Source: Bacteroidaceae bacterium
GTDB taxonomy: Bacteria; Bacteroidota; Bacteroidia; Bacteroidales; Bacteroidaceae
Direction of reading: 5' to 3'
Assembly (NCBI GenBank): GCA_017620295.1
Contig: JAFZQR010000097.1
Location: forward strand, 2,905-66,904
Length of the DNA: 64,000 nt
This document shows, piece after piece, positions 43,320 through 60,440 of the stretch. Positions within the stretch are counted from its first letter, which is position 1, and every line of letters begins with the position of its first letter. Under the pieces are notes generated by a model, which saw only the letters and a program-made list of their open reading frames with translations, did no database searches and had not been told where the DNA came from. Both the position numbers and the translations under genes were made by a program.

Positions 43320-44021
43320 TTATCTGATTATATATTTCTTGCCGTTAATAATATGTAATCCGCGATTTGCTTGTGTGACTCTCGTACCATCAATGTTGTA
43401 CACTTCTGGCGTTGTCTGTGTGGCTTCTATAGAGTTTAAGGCATTTGGCTTCGGTGTGCAGGTTGTCATTGTATAGACAGCGGGTTTGTTCGGGTCAATC
43501 ATTGAAGTTAGTTGTGTGTCAAACAAAACCCATGCCCTTTCTCCTGTCTGTTGATTGATGGGTGTGAACTGTGCTGCTTCGTCATATACTGGTTTGTTGT
43601 CTGGGATTGTGTCGTAGCAGTTAACCACGTAGTGTAGTTCGCCATCTCCTATATATATCATCATATCCAGTGTTGAGTCGGAGCAGACATTGTAGGTAAG
43701 AATGCAACTGATAGAATCATAAGTATATGTGCCTTCCTCGTGTTTAAGTGTAAATGACGGAGTGTCGTGCCCGATATGTCCGCGTGTCTCATTGGTGAAA
43801 GACAAATCGGGGTTAAGAGACAGTGTGCGCTCAACGTTAATTGCTATTTTGGCATTGGGATCCATCCCGATATATGTGCCAATCCATTCACTTTGGAGAT
43901 AACTTAGTTGGGGCTTGTAGTTGGTGTCTATCGCAAATGGTATGTTACCTTGTGCTGATAGTGCATGGCTGCACAGAAGCATCATAAAGGTTGTGCAGGT
44001 TGTTAGGCATGATAGTTTCAT
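43320..44021 (-). CDS. Secreted lipocalin-like family protein (paralog 1) with a short T9SS-CTD-like tail
   Basis: Signal peptide. Shares the W(I/V)GxYxGxD...R(T/H)xxL...E(H/E)GTY...DS motif set with 45454-46068 and 59102-59734. The C-terminus VYNIDGTRVTQANRGLHIINGKKYIIR resembles T9SS tails. Confidence 0.55.
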   Translation of the reverse strand: MKLSCLTTCTTFMMLLCSHALSAQGNIPFAIDTNYKPQLSYLQSEWIGTYIGMDPNAKIAINVERTLSLNPDLSFTNETRGHIGHDTPSFTLKHEEGTYTYDSISCILTYNVCSDSTLDMMIYIGDGELHYVVNCYDTIPDNKPVYDEAAQFTPINQQTGERAWVLFDTQLTSMIDPNKPAVYTMTTCTPKPNALNSIEATQTTPEVYNIDGTRVTQANRGLHIINGKKYIIR

Positions 44022-44097
44022 AGTTGTTGTTATTTGTTTTTGTAGTTGGGACGTCGTTCACGGTTGTGGGTTTATTGTAGTCTTGCCAAGAACTGAT

Positions 44098-44883
44098 CTA
44101 ACGTGACCCTCCGATATGGAAAAGTAGTGCTAATGAAAACATCTGAGTGTGGGGGGTGGCGAGGGGCTTCTCATAGTTAAGCATTAAGAGTGCGGTTTTA
44201 TGTTTGTCCAGGTCTATCGTTACTCCACCAGCCAATACTACACATTCCTTATCCCTGGTCATATCTACTGTGTTAGGGCTTGTGTAATGTTTATTGCTGT
44301 GGGCTATGGGCAGGTGGAGACGTGTACCGGTATTGAAATGTATGAGATGACGCTGGGGGCCCAATAAACTTATTCCTGCGAATATATTTGCTGCCAACTG
44401 GTGTATATCATGCCCCAGCATAGCCCACTGTAGTCCTGACCCTAGACATAGATTGAAGTCTTCTGATGGTCCCACGCCCAATCTGATGTCAACAGGCAAT
44501 GTCATCTTGAGCTCGTCGCTTGTGTCTTCCGAATAATATGATGCTGTGGAGAGCATCAATGATGATATGATTTCATAGTTGAATTGTTTTGAGACATAGT
44601 AGTGAAAATCATAGACACACCCTAATCCAATATCCTTGAACGTGTTGGAGCCATTATCACTATTACTCGCATTGGCCTGAGTGTCGCCGCTGCTGAATAG
44701 TGAAGGCTTGCCTACGTATGCTCTTGCAGCAACAAATCCAAACTGATGTACAGTTCCTGTATAACCATTGTATGGACTGTCACCTTGAGCTGCATCATCT
44801 CCATCGTACATGGCTTTAGCTTGTAGTGAGAATACGGCCGTTAACAATATAATTGATGATAAGAAACGTATTTTAGAAAGCAT
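44098..44883 (-). CDS. Putative small outer-membrane beta-barrel protein
   Basis: Signal peptide (AVFSLQAKA), Gly/aromatic-rich alternating strands, 261 aa. It lacks a canonical terminal aromatic residue. Confidence 0.45.
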   Translation of the reverse strand: MLSKIRFLSSIILLTAVFSLQAKAMYDGDDAAQGDSPYNGYTGTVHQFGFVAARAYVGKPSLFSSGDTQANASNSDNGSNTFKDIGLGCVYDFHYYVSKQFNYEIISSLMLSTASYYSEDTSDELKMTLPVDIRLGVGPSEDFNLCLGSGLQWAMLGHDIHQLAANIFAGISLLGPQRHLIHFNTGTRLHLPIAHSNKHYTSPNTVDMTRDKECVVLAGGVTIDLDKHKTALLMLNYEKPLATPHTQMFSLALLFHIGGSR

Positions 44884-45457
44884 ATCCTAATCCAATGGTT
44901 AATAGCGGTATTTCTTTCCACATATAAGTAACTCCTATTTCGGCTAACCAATGTTTCCAAGGCTTAATAGACAGACCTGTCTCCATGGGCATTGTGTTAT
45001 AGATAAAGGTGGTTTTTTCATCTGTTGGCAACTCACTGTTCGTCAAATCTGATGCCAGATTGTCTTGGGACAAATCAGCAATAAAGCCCCATCCTATCTG
45101 TCCATATAACCCAAGGACATTGCTAAACCAATGTGTCCATCCAGCTGCTATCAAACCGGCGTATAGGTGTTCGGTTGAGGGGGCGGTTGCACTTGGAATA
45201 CCTATAATTTCGGGCATGAACTTACGCCAAGCGTTGTGCCTCGTAGGCTTGCCGTAAGCAATGGCAAATCTAAGCATCTCCGATGAATGCCTGCTTTTGG
45301 GCAGTGTTATATTCCAGCCCGCTTCATAGTATAGCTGTGAAATGCGTATAGAAACGGAATTCGAGGGATGTATGTAGGCATCCTGTGCCATTGCTGTGGC
45401 TATATTGTAGGATATCACAATGGCAAATACTAGTTTATATGTGAATAATGCTTTCAT
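44873..45457 (-). CDS. Putative small outer-membrane beta-barrel protein
   Basis: Signal peptide (IATAMAQ), alternating beta pattern, and the C-terminal ...LLTIGLGYAF OMP signature. Confidence 0.55.
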   Translation of the reverse strand: MKALFTYKLVFAIVISYNIATAMAQDAYIHPSNSVSIRISQLYYEAGWNITLPKSRHSSEMLRFAIAYGKPTRHNAWRKFMPEIIGIPSATAPSTEHLYAGLIAAGWTHWFSNVLGLYGQIGWGFIADLSQDNLASDLTNSELPTDEKTTFIYNTMPMETGLSIKPWKHWLAEIGVTYMWKEIPLLTIGLGYAF

Positions 45458-46068
45458 TGCAGACGCGACATCATATAATAAAGGGCCGACGTACTGTCTT
45501 CGGCATTTCTTAAGGTCTCATCAAAGCGAACCCAGCGCCGCTGACGATTATGTTCGGGAGTAAACCATATGCTCTCTTCATATTGACTCAAGATTCCTTC
45601 GCCAACCCTCAGTTTGCCTGGATTGTACTCTAACTTACCAGTAAGGAAGTTTACAAGCGAGTCATATTCCACTTGATAATATAGCATTCTATTCTCTTGT
45701 ATGAGCAAATAGGTGCCATGTTCGTGTTCAAAGTCAATAAATTGTGTATGCTGCTCTGTGCTGTCTGACTCTTTAAGCATCAGGCCTCTGACATAATTAT
45801 CGTAACTGCCATCGGGATGAAGTTTTGTATGCCGTTGTATCTTGCACAGTGTCTGCTGCCTTGGGTTGGCGTCAAATCCCAAATACTCAGCCCGCCACTC
45901 GCCGACAAGGAATTCCTTGTCGGCGGTGAATGCAGAGTCGATAATCACTAACGTTGAGTCGAATGTTTCAGATCCTGCAGATGATGAGATATCATCGTCA
46001 TCTGGTATGCAGGCACATAACGATAAAACTAGTGAGATGTATATTAGATATAACCTTGGCTTATTCAT
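45454..46068 (-). CDS. Lipocalin-like family lipoprotein (paralog 2)
   Basis: The ATG at 46068 gives the lipobox MNKPRLYLIYISLVLSLCAC, 1 nt after the upstream stop. Motifs GEWRAEYLGFD, QRHTKL, EHGTY and YDSLVNF are shared with paralogs 1 and 3. Confidence 0.6.
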   Translation of the reverse strand: MNKPRLYLIYISLVLSLCACIPDDDDISSSAGSETFDSTLVIIDSAFTADKEFLVGEWRAEYLGFDANPRQQTLCKIQRHTKLHPDGSYDNYVRGLMLKESDSTEQHTQFIDFEHEHGTYLLIQENRMLYYQVEYDSLVNFLTGKLEYNPGKLRVGEGILSQYEESIWFTPEHNRQRRWVRFDETLRNAEDSTSALYYMMSRLQ

Positions 46069-46069
46069 T

Positions 46070-47677
46070 TCAGCGCATCTGTACAACATTGTGTTTGATG
46101 TTTTTAAAAGCTGATTTCGAGATACAGTTTAACCCTTGTGCTGTCTGTCGTCCAGTTATAGTGGCGTCACTCGTGCTGGCTTTTACGGATGATGACGTTT
46201 TCGCTCTAATCCAACTGTCATTTCCAATATTCCCTTTGCCATCTATAGCCCATGTGCATACAACAAGGTAATCACCATCACGTGGCAAATTCACTCCAGT
46301 CCAATCGAATGTGTCTGTGTTCTTTCCAGTCTTTATCTGATAGTATAGCCAATAAAGATTCCAATGCCTGTCCTCGTTGTATTCATCTTCATCCTCCCAG
46401 CAATCAATATAGTAGGCAGTAGCATTATTGTCAAGGCTAACGTCCCATTGCCATATATTGCTGCCGTCAGAACTGCTCGTTGCCGCCTCAAGATTTGAAA
46501 GAGTCGCAACAGGGAGATTCTTAGACCTCGTGGTGAATTCTTTCTGGATGACTCTGCCTCTGTTGCCATCTGCGTCATAGGCAATGGTGCATAGAACATA
46601 GTCCGTTCCTGCCTTATATGCGTCACCAGTTGATTTCCATATGTAACCCGTCAGATCTTCATTCGAGACTTCCGTCCCTATGTCATTCGACATCACTGAA
46701 ATCAGGTATGAGGTTGATATGGTATCAATGATACTTTTAGGAAGTACTGCATATATGAAATCATGAACATTGGATGTTACGTCAAACTCCGTAACCATAC
46801 CATCTGTGAATTCAAGAAAATCTTTGGCCGTCGCCTCACAGTTTGCTACAACGATGTCACCAACAGTCCAGCCATACACATTGTTATTTGTCGGGATTGT
46901 GAAGAAACCACCCTTACCAACAGGTAGCACACTGGATGATAAAGTACGATAGTAATTCTGGGAATTATTGACGTAAATGCTGAATTGCTTGCTCGTGCTG
47001 CTTGTGCTGTAATCTCCATATATATAAGGCGTGAAGCCTGTGTTATCAACAGTCAGTGTAATGTCTTTTTTTGTTGCTACGGTTGAACCTGTAGAGACGT
47101 TGAGGCTTGTAAAGAACTGGATGCTGTTATCTGAAGCTGGTAGTGTCACGGTTGTGCCTACATTCCCACGGAATCTCATGCGCCAGACATGAGGCTTGAG
47201 TGTGCCTGTGATGTATAGAGCATCTGAAGTGGGGTGCGTGTATGTGCCAGTGGCCTGATATAGCACAGAACTTTCGTTAAGCGTGATGGTGTTACCGCTC
47301 TTTGATACTTGGTTCTCTACATAATATATCTCACATTCGGTATCGCTGATGACAGTTGGCAGTGTGCCAGAGTAAGATACTTGCCAGCCTGATGAGGCAC
47401 TGTAGGATGCTGTGCCAGCAATCGTGCTGGAACCGTTCTTGAAGCGCAGGTATAGGATGCTACCATTGCTCCATGTCTTTGAAATGGCTCTTGTTTCAGG
47501 CGCTTCGTCGTCGAATGATGGCAAATCGCTGTCCCAGTACATTTTACAAGTGTTCGTGGACTCCTGTGTCTCGTCTGGTGTCATGGTAATCTCCGTGTCG
47601 GTGCCAAGGGAACATGACGTGAAGGCTAAGGCTGCAATTATTGCAATACCTGTCAGTTTGAAATGTTTTTTAATCAT
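46070..47677 (-). CDS. Hypothetical surface lipoprotein (535 aa), paralogous over its C-terminal half to 47712-49340
   Basis: Lipobox (ALAFTSC). Shared blocks with the neighbour include GTDYVLCTIAYDADGNRGRVIQKEFTT vs GKNYTIVFIAFASNGKHGSINSQDFST, and IWQWDVSLDNNATAYYIDC vs CYAWDISRGRTTTGYYTYIC. Confidence 0.55.
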   Translation of the reverse strand: MIKKHFKLTGIAIIAALAFTSCSLGTDTEITMTPDETQESTNTCKMYWDSDLPSFDDEAPETRAISKTWSNGSILYLRFKNGSSTIAGTASYSASSGWQVSYSGTLPTVISDTECEIYYVENQVSKSGNTITLNESSVLYQATGTYTHPTSDALYITGTLKPHVWRMRFRGNVGTTVTLPASDNSIQFFTSLNVSTGSTVATKKDITLTVDNTGFTPYIYGDYSTSSTSKQFSIYVNNSQNYYRTLSSSVLPVGKGGFFTIPTNNNVYGWTVGDIVVANCEATAKDFLEFTDGMVTEFDVTSNVHDFIYAVLPKSIIDTISTSYLISVMSNDIGTEVSNEDLTGYIWKSTGDAYKAGTDYVLCTIAYDADGNRGRVIQKEFTTRSKNLPVATLSNLEAATSSSDGSNIWQWDVSLDNNATAYYIDCWEDEDEYNEDRHWNLYWLYYQIKTGKNTDTFDWTGVNLPRDGDYLVVCTWAIDGKGNIGNDSWIRAKTSSSVKASTSDATITGRQTAQGLNCISKSAFKNIKHNVVQMR

Positions 47678-47711
47678 GGTTTATAATGCTTTGTCGTTGA
47701 TTATGTTTCGT

Positions 47712-49340
47712 TTATATTGTCGTATAGTCTGTAAAACCACCTGTTTGGCGGGTGCTGTTGTCAATGTCTGTATCATCATCGAAGTCATCACGTCCGAAAT
47801 CATTTGAGCTGTTGTCTATGTCAGCATCACCATCGAACTCGTCACGTCCGACATCTGTTGAACCTTGATTGTCACTGCCATTGCCTTTCTGATTGATGCT
47901 CACTTCGTATGTACGCCCGCTATTCGTACCCTTAAACGTGATTTTACCCTGTCTGGATGAACCATTGTTGGCAGACACCGTAATGTTTATTGTGGCGGGT
48001 GATGTTCCTGTAGCTTGACAACTAATCCAGGCATTGTCCGAACACGTGGCCGTCCAGTTGTCATTTCCACCAAGGGATACAGTCTTAGTTCCACCAGTTG
48101 CCTCGAAGGATAAGGATGTAGTACTTACTGTAAATGAATATGGGGAAGATGTCTTGAGTTGACCATTCTCTACTTCGTATACCATGTCGTAAACCAGTCC
48201 ACACATGCCATTTGAACTTCGGCTCCATGTAACAATCTGAACATACTTGTCCGAAGGAGAGGCACTGAAATATATTGTTGCGTTGTTGTTTGATTCGTTG
48301 AAAAGGTATTCCTTCCTTACACCAGATCCATAATTGAATGAAGTGGAATGCGAGCTGAAATTGTCGCTTATGTGATCCAGAAATATCTTCCATGCCACCT
48401 TAATGCCATCAGGCTCATGATATTCCGCATAGCCACCCTTGTGCCCTTCCATTGTAGTGAACGATGCTGTGCTGGCACAGATATAAGTGTAGTAGCCTGT
48501 CGTTGTCCTTCCACGGCTGATATCCCATGCATAGCATGATGAGCTTACACCATCTTCATTAACACCTGTTGTAGCCCCCTCATGTGCCATAATGGTTGCT
48601 AATGCTGAACGCTCATCATTCGCCGACGGAGTGCTGAAGTCTTGTGAGTTTATAGAACCATGCTTGCCATTGGATGCAAATGCTATAAACACTATGGTGT
48701 AGTTCTTGCCAGGCTCACAATCGTTGTAGACAAACTCAGGTGCTCCAGAACTTGTGATGTTGATGCGTTCCCAGTCTGAACCAGATTTCGTCGCTTCTTG
48801 ATAGATTGCTTCATTGTTTCCCCTCAGTTCGTTGAAGCGGCTGCGTTCATATACGTTATAAAGTACATAGCTCGTGTTGGAGCTGCTCGTGAGAGTTCCC
48901 GCAATACCATAACACATCACGATATGCAAATCTTCGCTCATGTCCGCCTCACAGTTCGGCTCCCACAGTGCCGCCTGTGTCACTCTTACCGTATCTTTGG
49001 CTTCGCAACCATCGTTGCTTGCCGTCACCACCACTATACACGAACGTTCGGCAATGCTCTCATTGGCCGACATGGTATGTAACGTAATGGTTGTTTTGCC
49101 TGTACCGCTACGGCTAGACGTTTTAAGCCAGTCTTCCCCATCTTCGATGGTCAAGCTCCAACTATAGTCAGTGCGAATCTCGAAGGTCACGGACTCTCCT
49201 GTTCCTGCTGCCAAGTTCAAGTCGGTTGGATTCACTGAAACAGTTGGTTGGGTGATGTCATCATCTGGAGAGCATGCTGCTAACACAATGCAAGTCAGAA
49301 AGAAATGCGTTAAATACCGAATAATTGTAGGATGTTTCAT
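47712..49340 (-). CDS. BACON-domain surface lipoprotein (542 aa) with a C-terminal Asp-rich tandem repeat
   Basis: Lipobox (VLAACS). BACON-like segments lie at the N-terminus (VSVNPTDLNLAAGTGESVTFEIRTDYSWS...TVRVTQ) and near the C-terminus (LSFEATGGTKTVSLGGNDNWTATCSDNAWISC...EVSINQ). Confidence 0.65.
   Translation of the reverse strand: MKHPTIIRYLTHFFLTCIVLAACSPDDDITQPTVSVNPTDLNLAAGTGESVTFEIRTDYSWSLTIEDGEDWLKTSSRSGTGKTTITLHTMSANESIAERSCIVVVTASNDGCEAKDTVRVTQAALWEPNCEADMSEDLHIVMCYGIAGTLTSSSNTSYVLYNVYERSRFNELRGNNEAIYQEATKSGSDWERINITSSGAPEFVYNDCEPGKNYTIVFIAFASNGKHGSINSQDFSTPSANDERSALATIMAHEGATTGVNEDGVSSSCYAWDISRGRTTTGYYTYICASTASFTTMEGHKGGYAEYHEPDGIKVAWKIFLDHISDNFSSHSTSFNYGSGVRKEYLFNESNNNATIYFSASPSDKYVQIVTWSRSSNGMCGLVYDMVYEVENGQLKTSSPYSFTVSTTSLSFEATGGTKTVSLGGNDNWTATCSDNAWISCQATGTSPATINITVSANNGSSRQGKITFKGTNSGRTYEVSINQKGNGSDNQGSTDVGRDEFDGDADIDNSSNDFGRDDFDDDTDIDNSTRQTGGFTDYTTI
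47754..47861. repeat. 2 x 54-nt imperfect tandem repeat encoding an 18-aa Asp-rich unit
   Basis: Copy A (47754-47807) and copy B (47808-47861) encode GRDDFDDDTDIDNSTRQT and GRDEFDGDADIDNSSNDF at the C-terminus of the BACON lipoprotein. Confidence 0.7.
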
Positions 49341-49352
49341 GAATGTTTGTTG

Positions 49353-50795
49353 TTATAAATGTAAATTAAAATGTTTTCTGATAGTACGCCGTCCGATGTC
49401 AGCCTGTTGCAGACCCTCTCCAAGACCTAATGGATGCTTTCTGGCCTCTTCACTACGCTGCTGTCCAATGAATTCATTACCCATAGGCAAACCTTCCGGC
49501 GACGAATAGATTGTCACCAATAATCGTTTCTGTGCAAACGTGTGCCGATATCGTATTCTGAATGTCATCAAACCAGTCTCCCTATCTACGTCGATTTTAT
49601 AGTCATGGGACAACTCCGTATCACCGTTAGGACGAACAATACTCGCCGTTGTGTCGTTAAGTGCACTTAGCAGTGGAACTATGTCAGGACGTACCATTGT
49701 GCCTCTATTCTCTGTACCATTAAAAGAGGGCTTCACTTCATTTGGATGTCTCTGTATTTTATCGCGGACCCAATACGCAGCAGGAAACTCGATGCTTGTA
49801 CTATCCATCGTTATCCTCAGCCCCTGCATAAGAAGTGTCATTTGTAGTGGTAGGTCGTATGTTGCCAATGACAGTGTAAGCGTGTCATTGCCGTATTTTG
49901 TTTCCAGCTTAGCCTCATCTAAAGCTTGTTCTAGAGTGCTTGACTCATCCTCTCTGTCAACATTAGCATTATTCACATCGTCTATTGAGAATTTTTCCCA
50001 GCAGCGAATGTTCGATTGCATCAACTTTATAATGTCTGTTTCCTCGCTCGGATGCCGTTCCCTCTCAAACTGCATCATATCACCTCCGTCAGAACCCTCT
50101 AGTGGAGGCATGTTTGTTCTGTCGTTATCTGAGACAAGACCTATTGTCCATGATGTCCGTAGCTTACGAGTCTGCATCAGCTCATCTTTTGGCAGAAGCA
50201 CATAAAAATTGATGGCAGCTTTTTCACGGTCTAGCTCTATATGGAAACGCTGAAAACCCAATCTGCATTCAGATCTACCTTTACGGAATATCGCACCTTT
50301 TCGGTTAAGTTCAGTTATCAAAGGTGAAATGTCAGGCCTAACGTCAGAACCATGTTCGGCATTATCATCTGGACAGAGAGTCTCTAACTCGTCCCTTACA
50401 TCCAATGCTGATGGCAACCTTATCTCATAATGTTTCCGCTTGCGTCCTGTCGGGTCAATGATAATCGATGTGGGTTGCATTAGTAGCCTCATCTGAATTG
50501 CAGGATGAGCCACAGACAAACACACCAGCATGTTTTTGTCATCTGTAGCAAGGTTTAATACAGTACCCTCATGGAGAATATTGATGGCCACGGAGTTCGG
50601 GCATGCGGAGATGAATGCTTTTAGCGAGTCGGTTGGATGTCCAATTGTATCCATGCATTCTATAAGAGATCCGCGGACATGTGCAACAGATGCCATATAC
50701 AACAGCAATAGAAATATCACTTCTTTGTAGTATATGCTTCTTTCTTCATGGCTTTTCTCAACCATTTGAGAGGGGCTTGGATTGAGGTTGTTCAT
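49353..50795 (-). CDS. Hypothetical exported protein (480 aa) built from an internal duplication
   Basis: N-terminal hydrophobic anchor (VIFLLLLYMASVA). The two halves share QMxLLMQ...I..D, VRPDI(S/V)PL(I/L) and ID(L/V)DRE blocks. Confidence 0.5.
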   Translation of the reverse strand: MNNLNPSPSQMVEKSHEERSIYYKEVIFLLLLYMASVAHVRGSLIECMDTIGHPTDSLKAFISACPNSVAINILHEGTVLNLATDDKNMLVCLSVAHPAIQMRLLMQPTSIIIDPTGRKRKHYEIRLPSALDVRDELETLCPDDNAEHGSDVRPDISPLITELNRKGAIFRKGRSECRLGFQRFHIELDREKAAINFYVLLPKDELMQTRKLRTSWTIGLVSDNDRTNMPPLEGSDGGDMMQFERERHPSEETDIIKLMQSNIRCWEKFSIDDVNNANVDREDESSTLEQALDEAKLETKYGNDTLTLSLATYDLPLQMTLLMQGLRITMDSTSIEFPAAYWVRDKIQRHPNEVKPSFNGTENRGTMVRPDIVPLLSALNDTTASIVRPNGDTELSHDYKIDVDRETGLMTFRIRYRHTFAQKRLLVTIYSSPEGLPMGNEFIGQQRSEEARKHPLGLGEGLQQADIGRRTIRKHFNLHL

Positions 50796-50802
50796 ATTTA
50801 TG

Positions 50803-53562: not shown

Positions 53563-53583
53563 ATAGGTCTTGTGGTGTTACTC

Positions 53584-54453
53584 TTAGTGTGTTATTATTA
53601 TCAGCAGTCCCAATATTGCAATGGCAGATCCTATTATCTCTCTTTGAGTGGCTCGCTCATGGTTGATGATGAAGGCAAATAAGAGTACGAATACAGGTTC
53701 CATTGCAGATAATATGGATGTGATGGATACGCTGGTATATTTGATTGCGAGCATGGATAGAAGAAACCCTCCTAATGTTACAACAATGACATTAATGATA
53801 AACTGCAAAAGAATGCTGCAATTGGATAGTGGCTTTATCCAAGGGGTGATATTATGGGTGGTAACACCGATGAAGAGTACGGAGAGTGTGCCGGCTACCA
53901 TACGATAGTATGTTGCTGTGAGGACCTGGACATCTCCGATAGTTATCTTAACCATAATAGATGAAAAGGAATAGCATAGGATAGAGAGCAGGCCTAGAAT
54001 GATACCCCTTTTCTTGTTGGGATGGTCTTCCTGTTTGCCTATGATGACGATTAGGATTCCGGAGAGGAGAATGACAGCTCCGGCGTACTGCCTTATTGAG
54101 AGTATATCTCCCAAAAGGATAAATGAGAGGAACATCGTGACAACCTGTCCGAGCATGAAGTAGAGTACTTGTGTTTTTGCTCCAAGGTCTTGAAGTGAAT
54201 GGAAGAAGAGCGAGTCTCCAATGCCTATTCCAATTATTCCGCTGATGACTAGGATTGTAGCTGCTTTGAGTGTTAGTGCGGTGAGTCCACCCATAGGAAT
54301 TATGAGTAATGTCATAATGACAATGCTAAAAGTTCCTTTGAGGAATGTGATGCCTGCGTATGGTATTACCTTCCCTAATCGGTCGAAAAGCACCGTTGCA
54401 AAAGCCCAGGATGCGGTCGAGAGGATTGCTGCTGATATGCCGATAGCTTCCAT
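53584..54453 (-). CDS. EamA/DMT-superfamily transporter
   Basis: 289 aa with ten hydrophobic segments in two similar halves, the typical DMT layout. Confidence 0.7.
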   Translation of the reverse strand: MEAIGISAAILSTASWAFATVLFDRLGKVIPYAGITFLKGTFSIVIMTLLIIPMGGLTALTLKAATILVISGIIGIGIGDSLFFHSLQDLGAKTQVLYFMLGQVVTMFLSFILLGDILSIRQYAGAVILLSGILIVIIGKQEDHPNKKRGIILGLLSILCYSFSSIMVKITIGDVQVLTATYYRMVAGTLSVLFIGVTTHNITPWIKPLSNCSILLQFIINVIVVTLGGFLLSMLAIKYTSVSITSILSAMEPVFVLLFAFIINHERATQREIIGSAIAILGLLIIITH

Positions 54454-54466
54454 TGTTAGGGGGGTG

Positions 54467-56539
54467 TCACGGTACTAGTTTGAATCGTAGTAGGTATCGC
54501 TGAGGTATTACTTGTATGTAGTCAACAAGCTGGAAACCATAGAATGACAGCTGTCTTTCTATGAGGCGTCGGTCGATATATGGTCCATGATAGGGTAGGG
54601 TGTCATCGCAGACAGGGCTGTTGTCAACGATGATTAGTTCGCCGCCTGGTTTGAGCTGTTCAACCAGTGAGGTTAGATAAGTATGTCGGTCGTTGTCGGG
54701 TATAACGCCATATAATATGTGGTATAGCGAACACATGAACATGATGTCCACTTGTTCTGGGAGCTTGAGTATATCCTCTTTTCCGCGAATAATTCTAATA
54801 TTGCTTATTGAGTTCTCTGTTATGAATGACTGTAGTCTGTTTATGTGTTCCTCTTTTAACTCTAGTGCATAGACGATACCCTCGTCTCCGGTCATTTCGG
54901 CAAATTTGGTTGTGAAAAATCCGCTTCCTGATCCAATGTCTGCAACTTTCATTCCTGCTTTAATGGGTATGTTACTAAGGATAGTCTCTGTTTTTTCCCA
55001 TTGTGGTCGAAGGGGATTGAGAGCAAGTATATAGTCTTCCAGATAGGAACGGTGTGTTCGTCCTACCTCGCCACTCATCTCCAGAAGAGAGTCTGATATC
55101 ATTCTAATAGAGTCGTTTCCGAGTTTGTACTTATGCAAGAGATAGTATCGTATGATATTGCAGCTATCTGCTGTGAGATAATTGTAGAAACTGCGTGTCA
55201 GTGGGGCTGTCAGCATTGTTTCTCGTTGTTCTGCTGTTGCGAGTCTGGCTTTGCAAAGCCACTGTAGCGCAGAGTATTCCCCTCCAAAATTCTCTTGTGG
55301 TATGAGTTCTTCGTATTTACGTATTGCGATTTCGGCAAGTTCGGGTTGGCCTCCGCCCATGAAGTCGTATACATACTGCGCAGCGTCTATGCCACGGTCT
55401 GTAATGTCATAGCTGTCAAGGCTACCGATGTGTATAATAGACTGTTGATTCTCGATTGAGAGATTGGGCTGGTGTGATGAAACTTCTGCGGATAAATGTG
55501 GCTGATAGGATTGGTCTTGTTGGAATATCATCATGTACCTCTGGTTGCTCAAAGGCAGTATGCTCTTACGCCGAAATCCCCAATATGCAAGTTGTGCCTC
55601 AACCAATTGCGGGTCAACATGACAGTTGTTGAGTTCCATTCCGTGAAGGTTGTAGTTATCCACAACCACTATATATCCATTTTTGTGGAGGTGTTCCTTG
55701 ATGGATGAGAGTAACGACTTCCGCTCGTCTTCGCGCGACCACGTATATATAATATGGTATAATGAACTTATGAGAATGCAGTCAACTGTGTCCTCTATGC
55801 CTAATGTGTTGGTTTGGGTGTTTATGGCGATAACATTGTGTATTCCGTTTCGGACCATGATGTCGTTGACATACTTGATATATGACTGTTCTGTGTCTGT
55901 GGCATATACGATTCCTTTTTCGCCTACACGCTCAGACAGCCTTAATGTGTTGTATCCGAAACCGCATCCCATATCTACGACCTTTGAGCCATTGGATATT
56001 GGCAGCATGTGCATGATTTGTTCAGTGTGATCCCATTTGTTGCGTGTTGGGTCGTTGAACATAAGCATGTCGTCATAATAGGTGCGTTTTGCGATGTGTA
56101 GTTTCACGGAGCGGGGTTTATATCCGTTAAGCTCAAACTTTAGCACGAGATACTCTTTCAGTTTGTAGCATTTGTTGTCTGTGAATTGGCGGTATAAATC
56201 CTCAGTCAGAATGTCTGCTTGGTCGATGAACTGTCCCTTGCGTTCTTCGAGCATTCTATTAAGGATGTATGCCAGTGCGCCCCATGCCTTTTCCTTCTGA
56301 GTGTCATCTGCCGCCTTTCTGGTCCAAGCTCTGCATACGTACTCTATAGAATCTGGATGATTATTGTCCAAAGCGTTGAGTAGGGTATAAGCGAGTGTCG
56401 TATCTCCGGAGTCCGTCGGATGTGGATTCATACCGACTCTAACCAGTGAGGATGCATCATTGATAGCGATTTCGAACTGCGCAGAAGCCATTAGAGAGCT
56501 TATGGAGGTAATAATAAATAGAATGTGTCGCTTGATCAT
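54467..56539 (-). CDS. Tandem double class I SAM-dependent methyltransferase with an N-terminal signal/anchor sequence
   Basis: Two Rossmann motif I copies (VVDMGCGFGYNT, VADIGSGSGFFT), each followed by IVYA(T/L)(D/E) and (I/V)VVDN blocks. The N-terminus is MIKRHILFIITSISSLMASAQ. Confidence 0.75.
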   Translation of the reverse strand: MIKRHILFIITSISSLMASAQFEIAINDASSLVRVGMNPHPTDSGDTTLAYTLLNALDNNHPDSIEYVCRAWTRKAADDTQKEKAWGALAYILNRMLEERKGQFIDQADILTEDLYRQFTDNKCYKLKEYLVLKFELNGYKPRSVKLHIAKRTYYDDMLMFNDPTRNKWDHTEQIMHMLPISNGSKVVDMGCGFGYNTLRLSERVGEKGIVYATDTEQSYIKYVNDIMVRNGIHNVIAINTQTNTLGIEDTVDCILISSLYHIIYTWSREDERKSLLSSIKEHLHKNGYIVVVDNYNLHGMELNNCHVDPQLVEAQLAYWGFRRKSILPLSNQRYMMIFQQDQSYQPHLSAEVSSHQPNLSIENQQSIIHIGSLDSYDITDRGIDAAQYVYDFMGGGQPELAEIAIRKYEELIPQENFGGEYSALQWLCKARLATAEQRETMLTAPLTRSFYNYLTADSCNIIRYYLLHKYKLGNDSIRMISDSLLEMSGEVGRTHRSYLEDYILALNPLRPQWEKTETILSNIPIKAGMKVADIGSGSGFFTTKFAEMTGDEGIVYALELKEEHINRLQSFITENSISNIRIIRGKEDILKLPEQVDIMFMCSLYHILYGVIPDNDRHTYLTSLVEQLKPGGELIIVDNSPVCDDTLPYHGPYIDRRLIERQLSFYGFQLVDYIQVIPQRYLLRFKLVP

Positions 56540-56596
56540 GTTGTATGCGTTGTCTGAGTGTGTAGGTTCATATCGTGTGTCAAGTAATGATTCCGC

Positions 56597-58012
56597 TCAG
56601 ATGTTGAAAGGATTCAGACTTCCTTCCATGAAATCTTTGCGAGGGAATGATTGATGTTGGGGCTCATAGAATAGATGCACAATTTCGTCGCTGTAGAAAG
56701 CTCCCGTGGGAGTCAGCTCAACTCGCTTGTCGTCTTCTGTGATGAGCCCATATTGTAGTAGCAAGTCAAACTGACGTCGGAAAAGTTGGCTGACATCGGC
56801 ACCTTGGTTAAGACGTTGGAAAAGCTGTTTGTCAATGAAATAGTTCTTGAGTGGCAGTATAGTGGACCATCGTGCTTGCTGGTCGGCGTTGCGGATAAGG
56901 CAGCGGTTGGCTGCAATCATCCCCTGCTCTGTCCGTTGGTAGTACTCGGCGAAATCAGGTGTGTTTATCATGAATCGGTCGTTGAGGCTGCTAAAAGCAG
57001 AAAGTCCGAATCCGACCTCGTCCTTGAGCCTACAACACTGGTTGTAGGCGTAGAGAGAAATATTTTTCCTGTTTTTCGTGAATACTCGGCGAAGGTTTTC
57101 TTGGTATCCGTGGTCTGCAAGTATTAGGTCGCTGATCTCTTTCATGCGGATAGTGTCCTCCACAGAAATCAATTCATCCTCATGGTAGGCTGAGAACTTT
57201 TTGATGGTTCCCTCTTGATCTCCGTAAGGCTCGATTTTCAAACGGTATAGTTGAATTTCGTCCGTACCTAAGCTGCAAGCTTCCTCCATGACATCAATCC
57301 AGTTTTGAAGTGTCTCTCCTGGGTGTCCATATATGAACTCGATGTTCACTTTGAAACCCATGTTGAGACAGTTCTGTATAGATTCTTTTGCTACTGCAAC
57401 ATCATGGGAACGGTTCATTTTTCGCAGTACAGCATCATTCAGCGACTGAATACCTATGGTAAGTCTATCGCCTTGATAGTCCTTTATAATTCTGAGTCGT
57501 TCCAAGCCATCTTCCCCTACAAGTGTGGATGGATCCACATCCCAGTTGAACTGTGGACACGAGGTGATGTCTACATACTTCGTGAAGAATGTGAGGAAAC
57601 GTTTTAGCTGAGAGGGTGATAAATCCGTTGGCGTTCCACCTCCCATCAGTATTGTTCGGCTCTTTATTCTCTCGATGCCGCGGAAGGATAACCAGTTACG
57701 CATCTCCATCTCCAAATGGTCAAGGTATATGTCTTTCTCACTCTCACTGCAGTGATAGTGGCTGGGGTAGTGGCAGAATAGGCACCGGCGGTGACAGAAT
57801 GGGATGTGGACATAGACATCGAACTTTCTAGTCTCCAACTCATGGAAGTCCCTATACGCCTCTTCAGGTGGAATTGGAGGGTAGTTTGTTATTGGGGGGT
57901 AGTGAACTCCTGCAGGGCTGAAGTCCCCATGCCTTGGAATCAGTCCCAGTCTTTGATATTCCTGAAATTCTTGCCAACGTGGGGTGGAAAGGGCTATGTA
58001 ATCTCTTTGCAT
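56597..58012 (-). CDS. HemN-like (class C) radical SAM enzyme, coproporphyrinogen-III-oxidase family
   Basis: VYVHIPFCHRRCLFCHY CxxxCxxC cluster motif, GGGTP, and a HemN_C-like C-terminus. The track start at 58039 is TTG; the first ATG is 58012. Confidence 0.8.
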   Translation of the reverse strand: MQRDYIALSTPRWQEFQEYQRLGLIPRHGDFSPAGVHYPPITNYPPIPPEEAYRDFHELETRKFDVYVHIPFCHRRCLFCHYPSHYHCSESEKDIYLDHLEMEMRNWLSFRGIERIKSRTILMGGGTPTDLSPSQLKRFLTFFTKYVDITSCPQFNWDVDPSTLVGEDGLERLRIIKDYQGDRLTIGIQSLNDAVLRKMNRSHDVAVAKESIQNCLNMGFKVNIEFIYGHPGETLQNWIDVMEEACSLGTDEIQLYRLKIEPYGDQEGTIKKFSAYHEDELISVEDTIRMKEISDLILADHGYQENLRRVFTKNRKNISLYAYNQCCRLKDEVGFGLSAFSSLNDRFMINTPDFAEYYQRTEQGMIAANRCLIRNADQQARWSTILPLKNYFIDKQLFQRLNQGADVSQLFRRQFDLLLQYGLITEDDKRVELTPTGAFYSDEIVHLFYEPQHQSFPRKDFMEGSLNPFNI

Positions 58013-58080
58013 ATCATTATTTTTTTCTGTTGACACCAATTAATACGGAAGCTCAATTGGTAATGCTCTTTAAATAATTC

Positions 58081-59097
58081 TTAAAGTGCGTTGTCCGTGG
58101 TCATGCCAGCTCGTGCCAAAATATCACGGAAATGGTCTGTCTGTGGACGGATACGCTTCGATGAGTATATTGGGAAATGTTTTTCCAACTCAGGTGGTGT
58201 GCCATCGTGTACAGTTACAGTGTTGGCACCAGCCATGAGTCCCAAGTATTGTCCATCCGGTATCATCTTCTCCAGAGAACTAGTCGTGGGCATATATCTA
58301 TGAGGATTCATTATTCGTAGTAGTGCCATCATGTTCAACGTCAGGTTGGCATCGCCGGAAGGCTCGTTGGCAAACTCTGAGTTCTCTGCAGGGATGAAGA
58401 TGGTGGTGCTGTTCATGGCAAGCGGGAGCTCATGGGCTAAAAGCAAATCCTGTACTAAGTCCGACAATGTCTGACGTGGCAGCCCCACAATGTTTCCAGA
58501 GCCAATGTTGAAGCCAACGTCATGAAGCGTCTCAATACAGCTCAAACGGTTCGCCAGCGTGTCATTAGGCTTGCAGTAGGAGAACAGCGACGCATTAGAT
58601 GTCTCAAACTTCAGAATGTAGTCAGATGCACCTGCATCGTGTAGGTCGGAATATTGCTCGCGTTGTAAATTGCCTAGGCACAGGATAATGCGTAGGAATG
58701 GGTATCTGGCCTTTGCTCTTGCAACAGCCTCGGTTACATCCGATATGAATGTGTCGTTGACGTTCTCTCCCGACTGTAAAAGTACAGTCTTTCGGCCATT
58801 CTCTACAAGGTGTGAAATGAGACGGAACATAATATCTGCACTCAGCGTGTAATTGAGTGCTTGGTCCTTACCGCCTATTGCACAATAACGGCATTTCTGG
58901 CGGCATACGTTGGACACCTCAATCACACTTCTTACCTGAGCATCATTGCGCGGAAAGCATGCCAGCCGCTGCTGACGTGCCATGGCGAAGAGCCGTTGCT
59001 GCGCTTCGCCTCTGGCCGTCAGTGCTTCTGAGAGTGTGTCTTCACTGTAGTCCTCACGGGCAAGAGCCGTGAGGAAAGATAACCCTTGGCAGCCCAT
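58081..59097 (-). CDS. HydE/BioB/PylB-like radical SAM enzyme
   Basis: SNVCRQKCRYCAIGG cluster motif. LQSGEN, KFETSN, RLSCIETLHDVGFNIGSGNIVGLPRQTLSDLVQDLL and LTLNMMALLRIM align by eye with Thermotoga HydE as I recall its sequence. Confidence 0.75.
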   Translation of the reverse strand: MGCQGLSFLTALAREDYSEDTLSEALTARGEAQQRLFAMARQQRLACFPRNDAQVRSVIEVSNVCRQKCRYCAIGGKDQALNYTLSADIMFRLISHLVENGRKTVLLQSGENVNDTFISDVTEAVARAKARYPFLRIILCLGNLQREQYSDLHDAGASDYILKFETSNASLFSYCKPNDTLANRLSCIETLHDVGFNIGSGNIVGLPRQTLSDLVQDLLLAHELPLAMNSTTIFIPAENSEFANEPSGDANLTLNMMALLRIMNPHRYMPTTSSLEKMIPDGQYLGLMAGANTVTVHDGTPPELEKHFPIYSSKRIRPQTDHFRDILARAGMTTDNAL

Positions 59098-59101
59098 TAT
59101 T

Positions 59102-59734
59102 CTACTCGTTTGGCTTGTCCCCTTTGTCGCCGTCGAACTGTCGCATTGCGAAAGTCAAATTAATCTTTTCCGCCGTCAGCGACTGTAGATACATGTCTTT
59201 GGTTATCCAGTCACGCTTGCCGTGATTGCTCACGGTGAAGCGGGCTGTTTCCGTGTAGGTCGTACTCTGGTGGTCATAGTAGTGCTTTGCCCTATAGACA
59301 TTAAAGTTCTGGTCCGTGTAGTTCAGGACAGAGTCTACTTCACAAGTATAAGTTACGACACCATTCTTATAGGTGTATGTGCCGTATTCACTCTCAAACA
59401 ATCCCTTCTTGTCATTTATTGTACCAACAATCTGATTTACGTAGGTGTAATTGGAACGTAGGACTAGTGTACGAGTTATATCTGTGTTTTTCTTCTGGAT
59501 GGCATCCCAGCCGGTATACTCTCCCACCCACGTCTTCTGGATGTTTGACAGGCTTGGAGTGAAAGACGCGTCAACTTTGAATTGGGTAGAGTCGTTCCAT
59601 GTGATAGCATTTTCATTTTGATTGTCATCCAAGTTGATTTTTGTTTCGTCATCTCCATCATCGCCGCATGAAATGAAATAGCTCGTTGTCATGGCCATAA
59701 CAGCCACAAATAATAGATTGAAATACTTTTTCAT
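59102..59734 (-). CDS. Lipocalin-like family lipoprotein (paralog 3), first gene of the locus
   Basis: The ATG at 59734 gives the lipobox MKKYFNLLFVAVMAMTTSYFISC; the track start at 59851 adds 39 non-signal residues. Motifs TWVGEYTGWD, TRTLVL, EYGTYTY and VDSVLNY. Confidence 0.6.
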   Translation of the reverse strand: MKKYFNLLFVAVMAMTTSYFISCGDDGDDETKINLDDNQNENAITWNDSTQFKVDASFTPSLSNIQKTWVGEYTGWDAIQKKNTDITRTLVLRSNYTYVNQIVGTINDKKGLFESEYGTYTYKNGVVTYTCEVDSVLNYTDQNFNVYRAKHYYDHQSTTYTETARFTVSNHGKRDWITKDMYLQSLTAEKINLTFAMRQFDGDKGDKPNE

Positions 59735-59989
59735 AATAGATAATGATTTGTTGGTAAATATGTTAGATTCTGTATTCGTCCATATTTGTTTGCCAGCACA
59801 TTGGTGCTGTTGAATTATCAGAGATGGCTCATCTGCAACCTTAATATCCAAAGTGGTTTAATGACCTATGGCTTGGGAGATGCTGCGATACACAACTGCT
59901 ATAGGCTGTACTCTGAGTAAAAACGATGCGATGATTACTTCTTATGCCCCTAATCCCCTGAGAGGCTGGTTGATATTTGAGGCTACGAC

Positions 59990-60031
59990 AAAAAAAAGAC
60001 GTGGGAACTGTCTCTGCTGCTCGTCCCACGT
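59990..60031 (-). terminator. Intrinsic terminator (8-bp stem, 17-nt loop, U8)
   Basis: On the minus strand, ACGUGGGA...UCCCACGU (plus-strand 60024-60031 / 59999-60006). A run of eight U follows 1 nt after the stem (plus-strand A-run 59990-59997). Confidence 0.65.
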
Positions 60032-60440
60032 ATAGAGGCTCTCGCATTGCCCGGTTTAGTTGAACGAGCAACGCTGATAGCCCACGCCGACATGTATATA
60101 TCAGTCTCCAATATAATTGTCATTGACGCGTGTATCAATAGACTAAACTACACGTCTTCATTGGAGATGAGTATAAACACATCCCGAGGACATCCACCGT
60201 TGCCTCGTCATTGACTAAACCAAGAATTTGCGAGATTCCTATACGTCAAAGACAAGACGCCTGAAGACGCCTTTTAATATGTCGTGACTCCTAATCCCGC
60301 CCACATCGGTAATTTGCAATCTTTACCAGAATAGGTTCAGATTCACCGATGCCTCCCGCCTTTGGACGGTATGTCATTTAATACAACCAGTCGTGGCTCG
60401 GCGTGGGCTCTGATGATATAGAGTCGCTACAAAAGTCGGT
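59990..60440 (-). ncRNA. Candidate structured noncoding RNA, or a long structured 3' UTR of the B3/4-domain gene
   Basis: ORF-free region. A 12-bp perfect long-range helix (60079-60090 / 60398-60409) encloses nested helices at 60106-60112/60160-60166, 60125-60134/60149-60156 and 60304-60310/60345-60351. It ends in the terminator. Confidence 0.3.

Follow-up and report, generated by a model that had tools for sequence, protein, structure and literature searches.

Does a long run of same-strand genes that resembles no characterised pathway form one functional module, and what would such a module do? The question is raised by a locus in the window, the whole 64,000-nucleotide stretch of DNA that was analysed. 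Thirteen tightly packed genes, all on the minus strand, span 43320-59851 when ORF coordinates are recomputed from the sequence. The recomputed junctions (4, 41, 57, 13, 21, 7, 12, 34, 1, -4, -11 and 76 nt) agree with the same-strand run described in the initial annotation. The 41-nt junction between the HydE-like and HemN-like genes becomes 68 nt with the ATG start used by database entry P0001, and the 1-nt junction between the 535-aa lipoprotein and lipocalin B uses an internal ATG of a 211-aa ORF and becomes -20 with the longest ORF. The hairpins reported to flank the run, upstream with a T-run (59990-60031) and downstream, are both seen in the sequence. The features, in order of transcription, are:

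59985..60290, minus strand: conserved structured leader RNA, ~300 nt (nhmmer, RNAalifold)
59102..59734, minus strand: lipocalin-fold putative surface lipoprotein, paralog A; lipobox ...FISC, then acidic run GDDGDDE
58081..59097, minus strand: HydE-like radical SAM (rSAM) enzyme; cytoplasmic, CxxxCxxC motif
56597..58012, minus strand: HemN-like (class C-type) rSAM enzyme; cytoplasmic, ORF extendable to a TTG at 58039
54467..56539, minus strand: tandem class I SAM methyltransferase, predicted to be exported; signal peptide, then twice a helical domain plus methyltransferase domain
53584..54453, minus strand: DMT-family inner-membrane carrier; two EamA domains (117 bits, matched over two stretches)
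50803..53562, minus strand: TonB-dependent-receptor-like outer-membrane barrel; PF13715 50 bits, PF14905 46 bits
49353..50795, minus strand: duplicated exported orphan protein, 480 aa (alignment A1)
47712..49340, minus strand: surface lipoprotein, 542 aa, two BACON domains (52 bits); lipobox ..LAAC, then SPDDD
46070..47677, minus strand: surface lipoprotein, 535 aa; weak partial paralog of the BACON protein
45454..46089, minus strand: lipocalin-fold lipoprotein, paralog B; orthologs in L008 and other loci
44873..45457, minus strand: small exported protein, candidate outer-membrane barrel; signal peptide ..AMAQ|D, C-terminal ..GYAF
44098..44883, minus strand: small exported protein, 261 aa; signal peptide
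43320..44021, minus strand: lipocalin-fold paralog C; type I signal peptide (..LSAQ|G), C-terminal extension
43250-43288, no strand assigned: hairpin of ~10 bp, read from the sequence, separating the last gene from the convergent L27/L21 genes

PorU and PorV are also encoded within the window.

A conserved core with outer layers

The gene run is not a product of chance, because its order repeats in dozens of independent contigs. The locus is of the rumen-type Prevotellaceae and represents a genuine, broadly conserved and uncharacterised gene module; a literature search found no paper describing it. In many genomes the barrel is encoded alongside the rSAM pair, the methyltransferase and the carrier, in keeping with the earlier proposal that the genes form a co-conserved envelope unit on one strand, unlike any characterised pathway. 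Comparison of loci indicates that the 13 genes consist of an ancient four-gene core (the HydE-like and HemN-like rSAM enzymes, the tandem class I methyltransferase and the EamA/DMT carrier), a Bacteroidales layer (the TonB-receptor-like barrel and the duplicated orphan protein) and a Prevotellaceae layer (the lipocalin-fold, BACON and small outer-membrane genes). Among the loci fetched, a set biased by the peptide patterns used in finding them, 64 carry at least three of the four core genes and 43 carry all four in synteny, with GC contents of 31-67% and protein identities down to 45-55%. They derive from rumen, hindgut and diverse environmental metagenomes, sample types that the search tool itself does not state. 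Thus the treatment of the 13 genes as one system holds for the conserved neighbourhood but not for an indivisible unit, the locus being a composite of layers. Even the core is somewhat loose: one locus (L015) lacks the HydE-like gene and a lone HydE-like gene, 65-67% identical, is present elsewhere, so the four genes are not strictly inseparable.

It is scarcely credible that the module has no single function and is an accidental same-strand run drawn from at least two unrelated operons. The accessory genes of the outer layers do differ among loci in presence and order, four loci (L001-L004) hold a 6-gene core only, and the 76-nt and 57-nt gaps could contain promoters. Nevertheless, core order is repeated in 43 loci, the lipocalin, BACON and small outer-membrane genes adjoin the core in 29 loci, with one small gene inserted within it, and stop and start codons overlap.

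The core enzymes and their carrier

Profile searches bore out the domain calls of the initial annotation: HydE-like and HemN-like rSAM enzymes, two methyltransferase domains, two EamA domains, CarbopepD_reg_2 with OMP_b-brl_3, and two BACON domains. Both rSAM enzymes are without a signal peptide. The best sequence and structure relative of the first is the [FeFe]-hydrogenase maturase HydE (E 5e-51 against the Thermotoga maritima protein, TmHydE), with which it has in common the CxxxCxxC motif and the equivalent of TmHydE M224. Unlike HydE, it falls short of the equivalog model (191 bits against TIGR03956, cut-off 254.6), M291 is replaced by V/I, and no HydF, HydG or hydrogenase genes were found in any fetched neighbourhood. 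Nine further members score 186-205 bits, placing all ten tested below the TIGR03956 cut-off, and the enzyme is a member of a separate sub-family rather than a canonical HydE. In HydE itself, the 5'-deoxyadenosyl radical attacks a sulfur atom (PMC10114646).

The HemN-like protein (Radical_SAM, 82 bits) belongs to the same fold family, with the same SAM motifs, as HemN, HemW, ChuW/HutW, NocN and C10P. Its best NCBIfam match is the STM4012 family (162 bits, cut-off 380), followed by HemW (136, cut-off 205), ChuW/HutW (132, cut-off 400) and HemN (125, cut-off 325); among PDB entries it matches E. coli HemN (E 2e-26) and NocN (5e-14). It has more than 1000 homologs, of which the best 120 are 72-100% identical. 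Neither rSAM enzyme, then, reaches any curated cut-off, and the idea of an uncharacterised module withstands the concern that both might be members of well-characterised orthogroups.

The methyltransferase is predicted, unexpectedly, to be exported from the cytoplasm. Its signal peptide ends ..ASAQ|F, a cleavable-type signal is present in 27 of the 27 listed orthologs, and signal peptides of the Bacteroidales orthologs terminate in A/G-Q; the cytoplasmic methyl chemistry first envisaged for it is accordingly not upheld. Two methyltransferase stretches were found by profile search, and 24 orthologs from a family of 92 clusters (E<=1e-30) retain, in both halves, motif I GxGxG, the acidic beta-2 end, SLYH and DN, leaving both SAM-binding sites intact. 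The periplasm is not known to contain SAM, and a functional exported methyltransferase would therefore need a SAM supply. In 43 loci the EamA carrier is encoded together with both rSAM enzymes and the methyltransferase. DMT carriers of Chlamydia and Rickettsia can transport SAM and SAH (PMC3104491); the likeness is at the superfamily level (EamA domains), and those carriers, unlike the one proposed here, import SAM into SAM-auxotrophic parasites, leaving a SAM exporter role for the module's carrier a conjecture. Because a cytoplasmic rSAM pair, a membrane carrier and an exported methyltransferase are combined, the module probably makes and handles a small molecule across the cell envelope.

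The same enzymes admit two other explanations. The exported methyltransferase could methylate a lipid, glycan or protein of the periplasm or outer membrane, with SAM supplied or SAH exchanged by the DMT carrier and the acceptor or an unusual donor prepared by the rSAM enzymes. This is distinctly unlikely: the export signal, the intact SAM motifs, the fact that EamA always accompanies the methyltransferase, the SAM/SAH antiport precedent (PMC3104491) and the wealth of envelope proteins all fit, but efflux pumps, TonB-dependent barrel and small-molecule-binding calycins are left without a role, and the neighbourhoods show no consistent link to a glycosyltransferase or a gene of lipid synthesis. 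Alternatively, a toxic inorganic substrate of anoxic habitats (sulfide/thiols, arsenic, selenium or tellurium) might be methylated outside the cytoplasm and then removed by efflux or volatilisation, a highly improbable function. The weak similarity of the methyltransferase to ArsM- and TehB-type models that would speak for it is generic to class I and far under cut-offs (68 bits versus 510), and the rumen, hindgut and environmental habitats and the sulfur-directed chemistry of HydE (PMC10114646) must be set against the lack of linked ArsR-, MerR- or ars-type genes and the presence of surface binding proteins and a TonB-dependent receptor, which would be unexpected.

Envelope proteins and leader RNA

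The barrel comprises a signal peptide (..SAQ|T), a CarboxypepD_reg domain, a TonB-box-like EVVVRS, a plug-like segment and OMP_b-brl_3, and is present in all Bacteroidales-type loci fetched. The Plug domain once assigned to it has no match to the Pfam Plug profile; what exists is the plug-like segment, conserved in 7 orthologs. Self-alignment agrees that the 480-aa orphan is internally duplicated. Its gene is a fusion of two ~240-aa genes that many relatives keep apart; L008, L009, L011, L012 and L014 have two ORFs in its place. Its AF2 model (pLDDT 72) has no fold match in the PDB (TM <=0.16), and hhalign relates it (probability 92%, E 5e-7) to a 243-283-aa family that adjoins MacA in distant loci.

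That there are three lipocalin-like paralogs is borne out by sequence similarity (27-29% identity, E 1e-9 to 1e-15; paralog B is 26-27% identical to A and C). Paralog A, which heads the operon in 29 loci, matches no Pfam or NCBIfam family; its AF2 model (pLDDT 83) has as top Foldseek matches Bacteroides lipocalin-like proteins, ToxS/VtrC, nitrobindin and siderocalin, supporting a predicted calycin fold akin to binders of bile salts, heme and siderophores. Acidic residues after the lipobox cysteine are the surface-export signal of Bacteroidota lipoproteins, and paralog A is predicted to be surface-exposed because such residues follow its lipobox cysteine. In many Prevotellaceae-type loci the core is followed downstream by an ortholog of the BACON lipoprotein. 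The 535-aa lipoprotein matched no family by profile search and has orthologs in L011, L012 and L014 (35-36% identity); its description as a paralog of the 542-aa protein stands only for one 76-residue stretch, to which the similarity is confined. Both small exported proteins had been called barrels, for which profile search gave one weak OMP_b-brl match (E 0.08), to the 44873..45457 product, and no family match for the 261-aa protein (orthologs in L008, L010, L015, L023, L030, L049 and L053). In one sub-branch the former gene lies between methyltransferase and EamA (L010, L015, L023, L026, L030, L035, L046, L049 and L053). Nor did profile search support a T9SS-like tail on the last gene.

Within the leader, the hairpin GGGATGTG..CGCATCCC is accompanied by a 3' domain built of an 8-bp outer and an 11-bp inner helix, after which comes a U-run. 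Another 11 of the fetched loci carry the element ahead of the operon (nhmmer, 12 matches, two near-identical; alignment A7). In the alignment 95% of cells are paired (RNAalifold and pair counts), and 12 pairs show compensatory changes, against 5.4+-1.6 in shuffles (0/500 reach 12) and <=4 in slid controls. The leader has no match in Rfam and is part of the locus. The upstream "terminator" is thus real as a hairpin but is not simple operon insulation: CGTGGGA...TCCCACG TTTTTTTT (~59990-60031) is an alternative local hairpin sharing the leader's 3' arm. Neither a metal-responsive regulator nor a recognised metal riboswitch was found.

A candidate pathway and its relatives

Distant cores adjoin HlyD/MacA, an ABC ATPase, a MacB_PCD+FtsX permease, an OEP/TolC protein and an AA_permease_2 transporter, and one locus (L077) has both MacAB and a TonB-dependent receptor with DUF4249; in some distant loci such neighbours could be coincidental. 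MacB-type pumps are exporters. Of the two functions first suggested, synthesis and export of a methylated metabolite agrees more closely with the comparison of loci than does uptake of a tetrapyrrole or quinone for remodelling, and export is favoured because distant cores adjoin MacAB-TolC efflux pumps.

TonB-dependent receptors, however, are importers, and many Prevotella species require exogenous heme and vitamin K. Surface lipocalins might capture a tetrapyrrole- or quinone-like cofactor for import by barrel and DMT carrier, the HemN-like and HydE-like enzymes modifying or opening it anaerobically. The TonB-receptor-like barrel, Foldseek matches that include the heme binders nitrobindin and nitrophorin, and the tetrapyrrole-acting or -binding HemN family (ChuW/HutW at 132 bits) are consistent with import. 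It is nonetheless unlikely: the ChuW/HutW, HemW and HemN scores are well under cut-offs, the ancient core is without barrel and lipoproteins and is linked to exporters, cytoplasmic remodelling leaves export of the methyltransferase unexplained, and profile search found no heme or corrinoid genes (HmuY/S, BtuG, ChuX/Y-like) in the locus.

Known systems offer partial parallels to synthesis and export. In P. aeruginosa cntOLMI, EamA-type CntI exports pseudopaline, which is secreted in two steps via the periplasm, and the same operon encodes a TonB-dependent receptor (PMC9774294); SAM-using biosynthetic enzymes, an EamA/DMT carrier and a TonB-dependent-type outer-membrane protein in a single operon are common to both. 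Unlike cntOLMI, the module has no homologs of CntL (nicotianamine-synthase-like) or CntM (opine dehydrogenase), its enzymes being two rSAM proteins and an exported methyltransferase. Pyoverdine is exported by PvdE as a precursor, matured in the periplasm by exported enzymes, secreted by MacB-type PvdRT-OpmQ and recaptured by the TonB-dependent FpvA (PMC9774294), and distant versions of the module likewise adjoin MacA/MacB/TolC genes; in contrast, the module has no NRPS, its locus in the window lacks MacAB, and the periplasmic enzyme, unlike those of pyoverdine maturation, would require SAM. C10P/C10Q offers a precedent for a HemN-like enzyme with a class I methyltransferase-fold partner (PMC6050322). 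Here the partner is exported, and the two therefore cannot act together in one compartment.

Synthesis and export with later recapture, following a metallophore-like logic, is a quite possible, if tentative, scheme, against which counts the lack of an evident outer-membrane exporter in the Prevotellaceae locus. The HydE-like and HemN-like enzymes would build or modify a cytoplasmic precursor, possibly from an amino acid or thiol. The EamA/DMT carrier would move the intermediate, and possibly SAM, across the inner membrane into the periplasm, where the exported tandem methyltransferase would finish a molecule that is probably amphipathic or hydrophobic. Release would proceed via a MacAB-TolC-type pump in distant lineages and, in Bacteroidales, via the duplicated orphan protein together with the TonB-receptor-like barrel, expression being controlled by the structured leader RNA with its hairpin and U-run end. 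In Prevotellaceae, lipocalin-fold and BACON surface lipoproteins would bind the molecule at the cell surface for TonB-dependent recapture, as happens with a metallophore or would with some other secreted metabolite that is shared.

Layout and co-conservation of the module

The module comprises 13 ORFs, all on the minus strand, that extend from 43320 to 59851 in the ORF table and encode, in order, a lipocalin-fold lipoprotein, a HydE-like and a HemN-like radical SAM enzyme, a tandem class I methyltransferase, an EamA/DMT carrier, a barrel, a 480-aa protein, a BACON lipoprotein, a 535-aa lipoprotein, a lipocalin paralog, two small exported proteins and a further lipocalin paralog. The junctions listed in the initial annotation were reproduced on recomputing (4, 41/68, 57, 13, 21, 7, 12, 34, 1, -4, -11 and 76 nt), and the two hairpins that it placed at the ends of the locus are present in the sequence, one GC-rich and followed by T8 at about 59990-60031, the other of about 10 bp at 43250-43288. 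Seven of the locus proteins are without a Pfam or NCBIfam family match. Both flanks are housekeeping in character, with a B3_4 protein, a 2-hydroxyacid dehydrogenase, TrmB and a class IV aminotransferase upstream, and a metallophosphoesterase and the L21/L27 ribosomal protein genes downstream; GC content is 44% in the locus versus 48% in the whole window. Elsewhere in the window, PorV (397 aa) adjoins a PorU-like Peptidase_C25 protein of 1272 aa (29103-34133, minus strand), a pair which indicates that the organism has a type IX secretion system, and on the plus strand at 36922-41354 lie adjacent large paralog-like proteins of 768 and 699 aa whose sole recognisable feature is a short C-terminal DUF4842 match.

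Related loci were drawn from contigs encoding HemN-like homologs, from a GTDB scan with the methyltransferase and from a metagenome scan with the HydE-like protein, and the layers of conservation were defined by tblastn synteny and by ORF clustering of the fetched loci. The co-localisation that had been proposed as a check is borne out: at least three of the four core genes (the two radical SAM enzymes, the methyltransferase and the carrier) recur together in 64 loci, and all four in 43. With identities between core proteins as low as 45-55% and a locus GC anywhere from 31 to 67%, the core is evidently carried by several distant lineages. A Bacteroidales layer adds the barrel and the orphan 480-aa protein (27 loci); in L001-L004, four of the fetched relatives, the locus extends no further than the core and this layer. 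The Prevotellaceae layer opens with a lipocalin-fold gene (29 loci), after which the BACON and 535-aa lipoproteins, more lipocalin paralogs and the two small exported proteins are arranged in varying order; in nine loci one of the small exported protein genes sits between the methyltransferase and EamA genes. That the genes serve no single function is accordingly a reading to which we give very little credence.

Other genes accompany the module in some relatives. A HAD-family hydrolase gene overlaps the locus end in L001-L004, and overlaps or closely trails the end of the core at L001:18419-19027, L004:17592-18182 and L096:20353-20763; the window locus has none. Among GTDB representatives at least 11 loci were found, a lower bound because the scan used two peptide patterns; all are from uncultured MAGs (Prevotella, Prevotellaceae, Bacteroidaceae, Bacteroidales), for several of which the record titles give red deer or sheep rectum as the source, together with a contig assigned to Lachnospira. 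The contig binned as 'Lachnospira sp.' (L012, JBJEMF010000033.1) carries a complete Prevotellaceae-type module, and its assignment is probably a binning error rather than a sign of cross-phylum transfer. In two other loci, L096 (GCA_014867205.1, WGUO01000001.1:289304-310722) and L097, the module lies between a phage-integrase fragment and a DDE transposase; these flanks, together with a GC content in the window locus about 4% below that of the window, are a hint of lateral mobility.

The radical SAM enzymes and the tandem methyltransferase

According to the initial annotation, its reading would fail if the radical SAM enzymes fell within well-characterised orthogroups, such as a bona fide HydE with HydF/HydG elsewhere or a housekeeping HemN/HemW. 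The HydE-like protein scores 191 bits on TIGR03956 versus a curated equivalog cut-off of 254.6, and all ten sub-family members that were scored lie under that cut-off (the other nine at 186-205 bits), solitary copies included. Neither HydF, HydG nor an [FeFe] hydrogenase was found in the scanned window (about 22-64 kb) or in the annotated neighbourhoods of the fetched loci. The HemN-like protein comes closest to the uncharacterised STM4012 family (162 bits versus a cut-off of 380), and its scores are likewise short of the cut-offs for HemN (TIGR00538, 125/325 bits), HemW (TIGR00539, 136/205.4) and ChuW-HutW (TIGR04107, 132/400). On scores below curated cut-offs and the want of HydF/HydG neighbours in the stretches scanned, a bona fide HydE or a housekeeping HemN, HemW or ChuW was rejected.

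In the HydE-like sub-family the CxxxCxxC motif and the equivalent of M224 of Thermotoga maritima HydE (M228) are invariant, M291 is replaced by V or I, and the PNW that follows it by HDG. The two methionines are the proposed relay residues for the Fe species of HydE, whose radical targets sulfur (PMC10114646), and by analogy one may reasonably guess that the HydE-like enzyme acts on a thiol or thioether. Detoxification of a metalloid or of sulfide, an alternative role for the module, is highly unlikely in our estimate.

The sub-family can also exist apart from the module, at least locally, since solitary HydE-like genes 65-67% identical to that of the window occur near position 10000 in L033, L036, L037, L041, L043 and L045; their neighbours are unrelated housekeeping or glycan genes (EPSP synthase, acyltransferase, DUF6709, GH26) that offer no functional clue. 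In L015, from a Prevotella MAG, the lipocalin gene directly precedes the HemN-like gene (L015:1-3000), the HydE-like gene being absent and the remaining module intact. Between the HemN-like and methyltransferase genes an additional ORF of 133-138 aa, without a family match and absent in the window, is present at L010:9429-9833, L014:9548-9949 and L015:2173-2589.

The tandem protein contains two class I methyltransferase domains, each of several Pfam methyltransferase models matching in two stretches. Motif I (GxGxG), the acidic residue after beta-2, SLYH and DN are kept in both halves across 24 non-identical orthologs, which argues that the protein is under selection as a predicted SAM binder. 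The family is small (92 clusters at E<=1e-30 in a search of 1.84 billion representatives) and takes a single-unit form of about 350 aa and a tandem form of about 700 aa; a PDB sequence search yielded no close solved structure. By inspection, a predicted signal peptide (positive n-region, hydrophobic h-region and small-residue cleavage site) is present in 27 of the 27 orthologs listed, and in Bacteroidales it ends in A/G-Q. In this phylum, substrates of signal peptidase I usually carry such a Q at position +1. On these conserved N-terminal features the methyltransferase is predicted to be Sec-exported and periplasmic. Both radical SAM enzymes are devoid of a signal peptide, so that SAM-dependent enzymes would be placed on either side of the inner membrane with the DMT carrier between them. 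An exported methyltransferase might instead modify the envelope itself; we consider such envelope methylation decidedly unlikely.

A structured leader upstream of the first gene

The hairpin upstream of the first gene had been described as a terminator. The hairpin stands; that it is a mere terminator does not, since it is conserved along with about 270 nt upstream of it. The whole element and its relatives, which nhmmer places immediately ahead of the first gene in 11 more of the fetched loci (12 matches, two of them near-identical), are as follows.

59985-60290, minus strand: structured leader RNA of about 300 nt (nhmmer, covariation)
L010:6628-6881: leader relative
L011:5927-6229: leader relative
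L017, L018, L022, L027, L029, L030, L034, L046 and L053: leader relatives

The fold derived from the alignment consists of a hairpin and a 3' domain, built of an 8-bp outer helix and an 11-bp inner helix, that ends at the U-run, with 95% of alignment cells paired. Twelve compensatory pairs were observed versus 5.4+-1.6 in shuffles (0 of 500 reach 12), and slid controls gave at most 4. The local hairpin of the initial annotation uses the 3' arm of the outer helix, so two leader folds are in competition. The end of the U-run and the start codon are about 10 nt apart in L011, where transcription of the operon must therefore cross the U-run; this speaks for an attenuator or riboswitch acting in cis, and the leader is a candidate for a new one. 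In the window about 255 nt (59735-59989) separate the U-run from the first ATG, a part of which is covered by a TTG-initiated ORF extension.

No known riboswitch was recognised with Rfam 15: neither the window nor 6 of the loci gave a match at gathering score, and the stretch 59700-60700 gave none even at E<=1. Also considered and rejected was a RiPP cluster, there being no radical SAM enzyme of SPASM/RRE type and no conserved precursor ORF; the frame of a short ORF within the leader is disrupted by indels, so that this ORF is not conserved. A DUF805b RNA (RF02914, 48 bits) at L004:19060-19092, downstream of the module's neighbours, is unrelated to the module.

Envelope components and a putative route across the envelope

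The carrier belongs to the DMT superfamily (EamA; PF00892, 117 bits in two stretches), and PDB sequence searches with it, the methyltransferase and the barrel gave generic matches or none. Of the plug-barrel in the initial annotation, the barrel is supported by CarbopepD_reg_2 and OMP_b-brl_3 matches, but Pfam Plug has no match even at E<=10; seven orthologs do share a conserved plug-like segment and a TonB-box-like strand. Import and remodelling of a cofactor, for which such a barrel could serve as the port of entry, is rather unlikely. A polysaccharide utilisation locus is ruled out, no locus lipoprotein having a SusD-type family match.

The three lipocalin-like proteins are true paralogs, as had been proposed, at 27-29% identity, and the BACON lipoprotein has two BACON domains (Pfam). 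The first lipocalin-like protein is without a sequence-family match; its AF2 model (pLDDT 83, pTM 0.75) matches in Foldseek Bacteroides lipocalin-like proteins, bile-salt-binding VtrC/ToxS, nitrobindin, nitrophorin and siderocalin, with probability about 1.0 to 4i95, 4gzv, 4iab, VtrC and ToxS and a TM of only 0.3-0.6 (E about 2e-3), and the model thus points to a lipocalin/calycin fold. Neither the two small barrels nor the T9SS-like tail of the last gene found backing in profile searches, the 233-aa protein and its final 40 residues alike being without a Pfam or NCBIfam match.

The 480-aa protein, which has a signal peptide and an internal duplication, yielded no fold match when its AF2 model was compared with the PDB in Foldseek, just meaningless antibody matches (TM <=0.16). 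In its gene (49353-50795) two paralogous units of about 240 aa each are fused, which many relatives have as separate, overlapping genes:

L008:9255-10687: split counterpart of the 480-aa gene
L009:15718-17144: split counterpart
L011:15700-17108: split counterpart
L012:9839-11228: split counterpart
L014:15718-17171: split counterpart

Among distant cores the neighbours, by Pfam, are an HlyD/MacA adaptor, an ABC ATPase, a MacB_PCD+FtsX permease, an OEP/TolC protein and an AA_permease_2 transporter, and MacAB-TolC-type or permease neighbours recur across several of L055, L062, L064/L068, L066, L077, L087 and L094. Half of the 480-aa protein has homologs in a family of lipoproteins of 243-283 aa that adjoins MacA in these distant loci (hhalign probability 92%, E 5e-7); this MacA-adjacent relative is single-copy. 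L077 also encodes an Ig-repeat protein with a C-terminal lipocalin-type domain like that of the locus lipocalins, as well as a TonB-dependent receptor with DUF4249, and L004 has a TonB-dependent receptor with DUF4249 upstream.

The best-supported model, which we hold as possible rather than probable, is a route that spans the envelope. Radical SAM chemistry in the cytoplasm would be followed by export through the DMT carrier, by methylation in the periplasm and by release, in distant lineages via MacAB-TolC; in Bacteroidales and Prevotellaceae the product would then be captured by surface calycin/BACON lipoproteins and taken up again in a TonB-dependent manner. Against the model, no outer-membrane exporter is evident in the Prevotellaceae locus; its other weaknesses are the absent HydE-like gene in L015 and the supply of periplasmic SAM, which is conjectural. 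DMT carriers are able to move SAM and SAH (PMC3104491), and one of them, CntI, exports a SAM-derived metallophore (PMC9774294). In a more specific and rather unlikely proposal, EamA would export SAM, or exchange SAM for SAH, allowing the periplasmic tandem methyltransferase to finish a metabolite made by the radical SAM enzymes, which would then be secreted and, in Prevotellaceae, recaptured; strict anaerobes would thereby have a secreted metabolite or metallophore of a new class, under a new riboswitch-like leader switch.

The closest working analogues of the envelope-spanning route are pseudopaline (the cnt operon) and pyoverdine (PMC9774294), to neither of which the module belongs; membership of a cnt-type opine metallophore system is ruled out, the locus having no CntL-type nicotianamine-synthase-like or CntM opine dehydrogenase domain. 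The searched literature holds no description of the module. All the component families are known; the combination, both radical SAM sub-families and the exported tandem methyltransferase are without a characterised counterpart in curated libraries or the searched literature.

If the route is correct, the module would represent a conserved and phylogenetically broad pathway of anaerobes, from herbivore-gut Bacteroidales to diverse environmental lineages, with enzymes outside all curated radical SAM orthogroups. It would provide a concrete case of a periplasmic SAM-dependent enzyme together with a candidate route for SAM supply; to our knowledge, such an enzyme would change assumptions on where methylation can occur in diderm bacteria. 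The leader would be a candidate new cis-regulatory RNA, the ligand of which would reveal the trigger of the pathway. Finally, Prevotellaceae of the rumen and hindgut would secrete and recapture a small molecule, be it for a metal, a cofactor or a signal, of relevance to competition within these communities.
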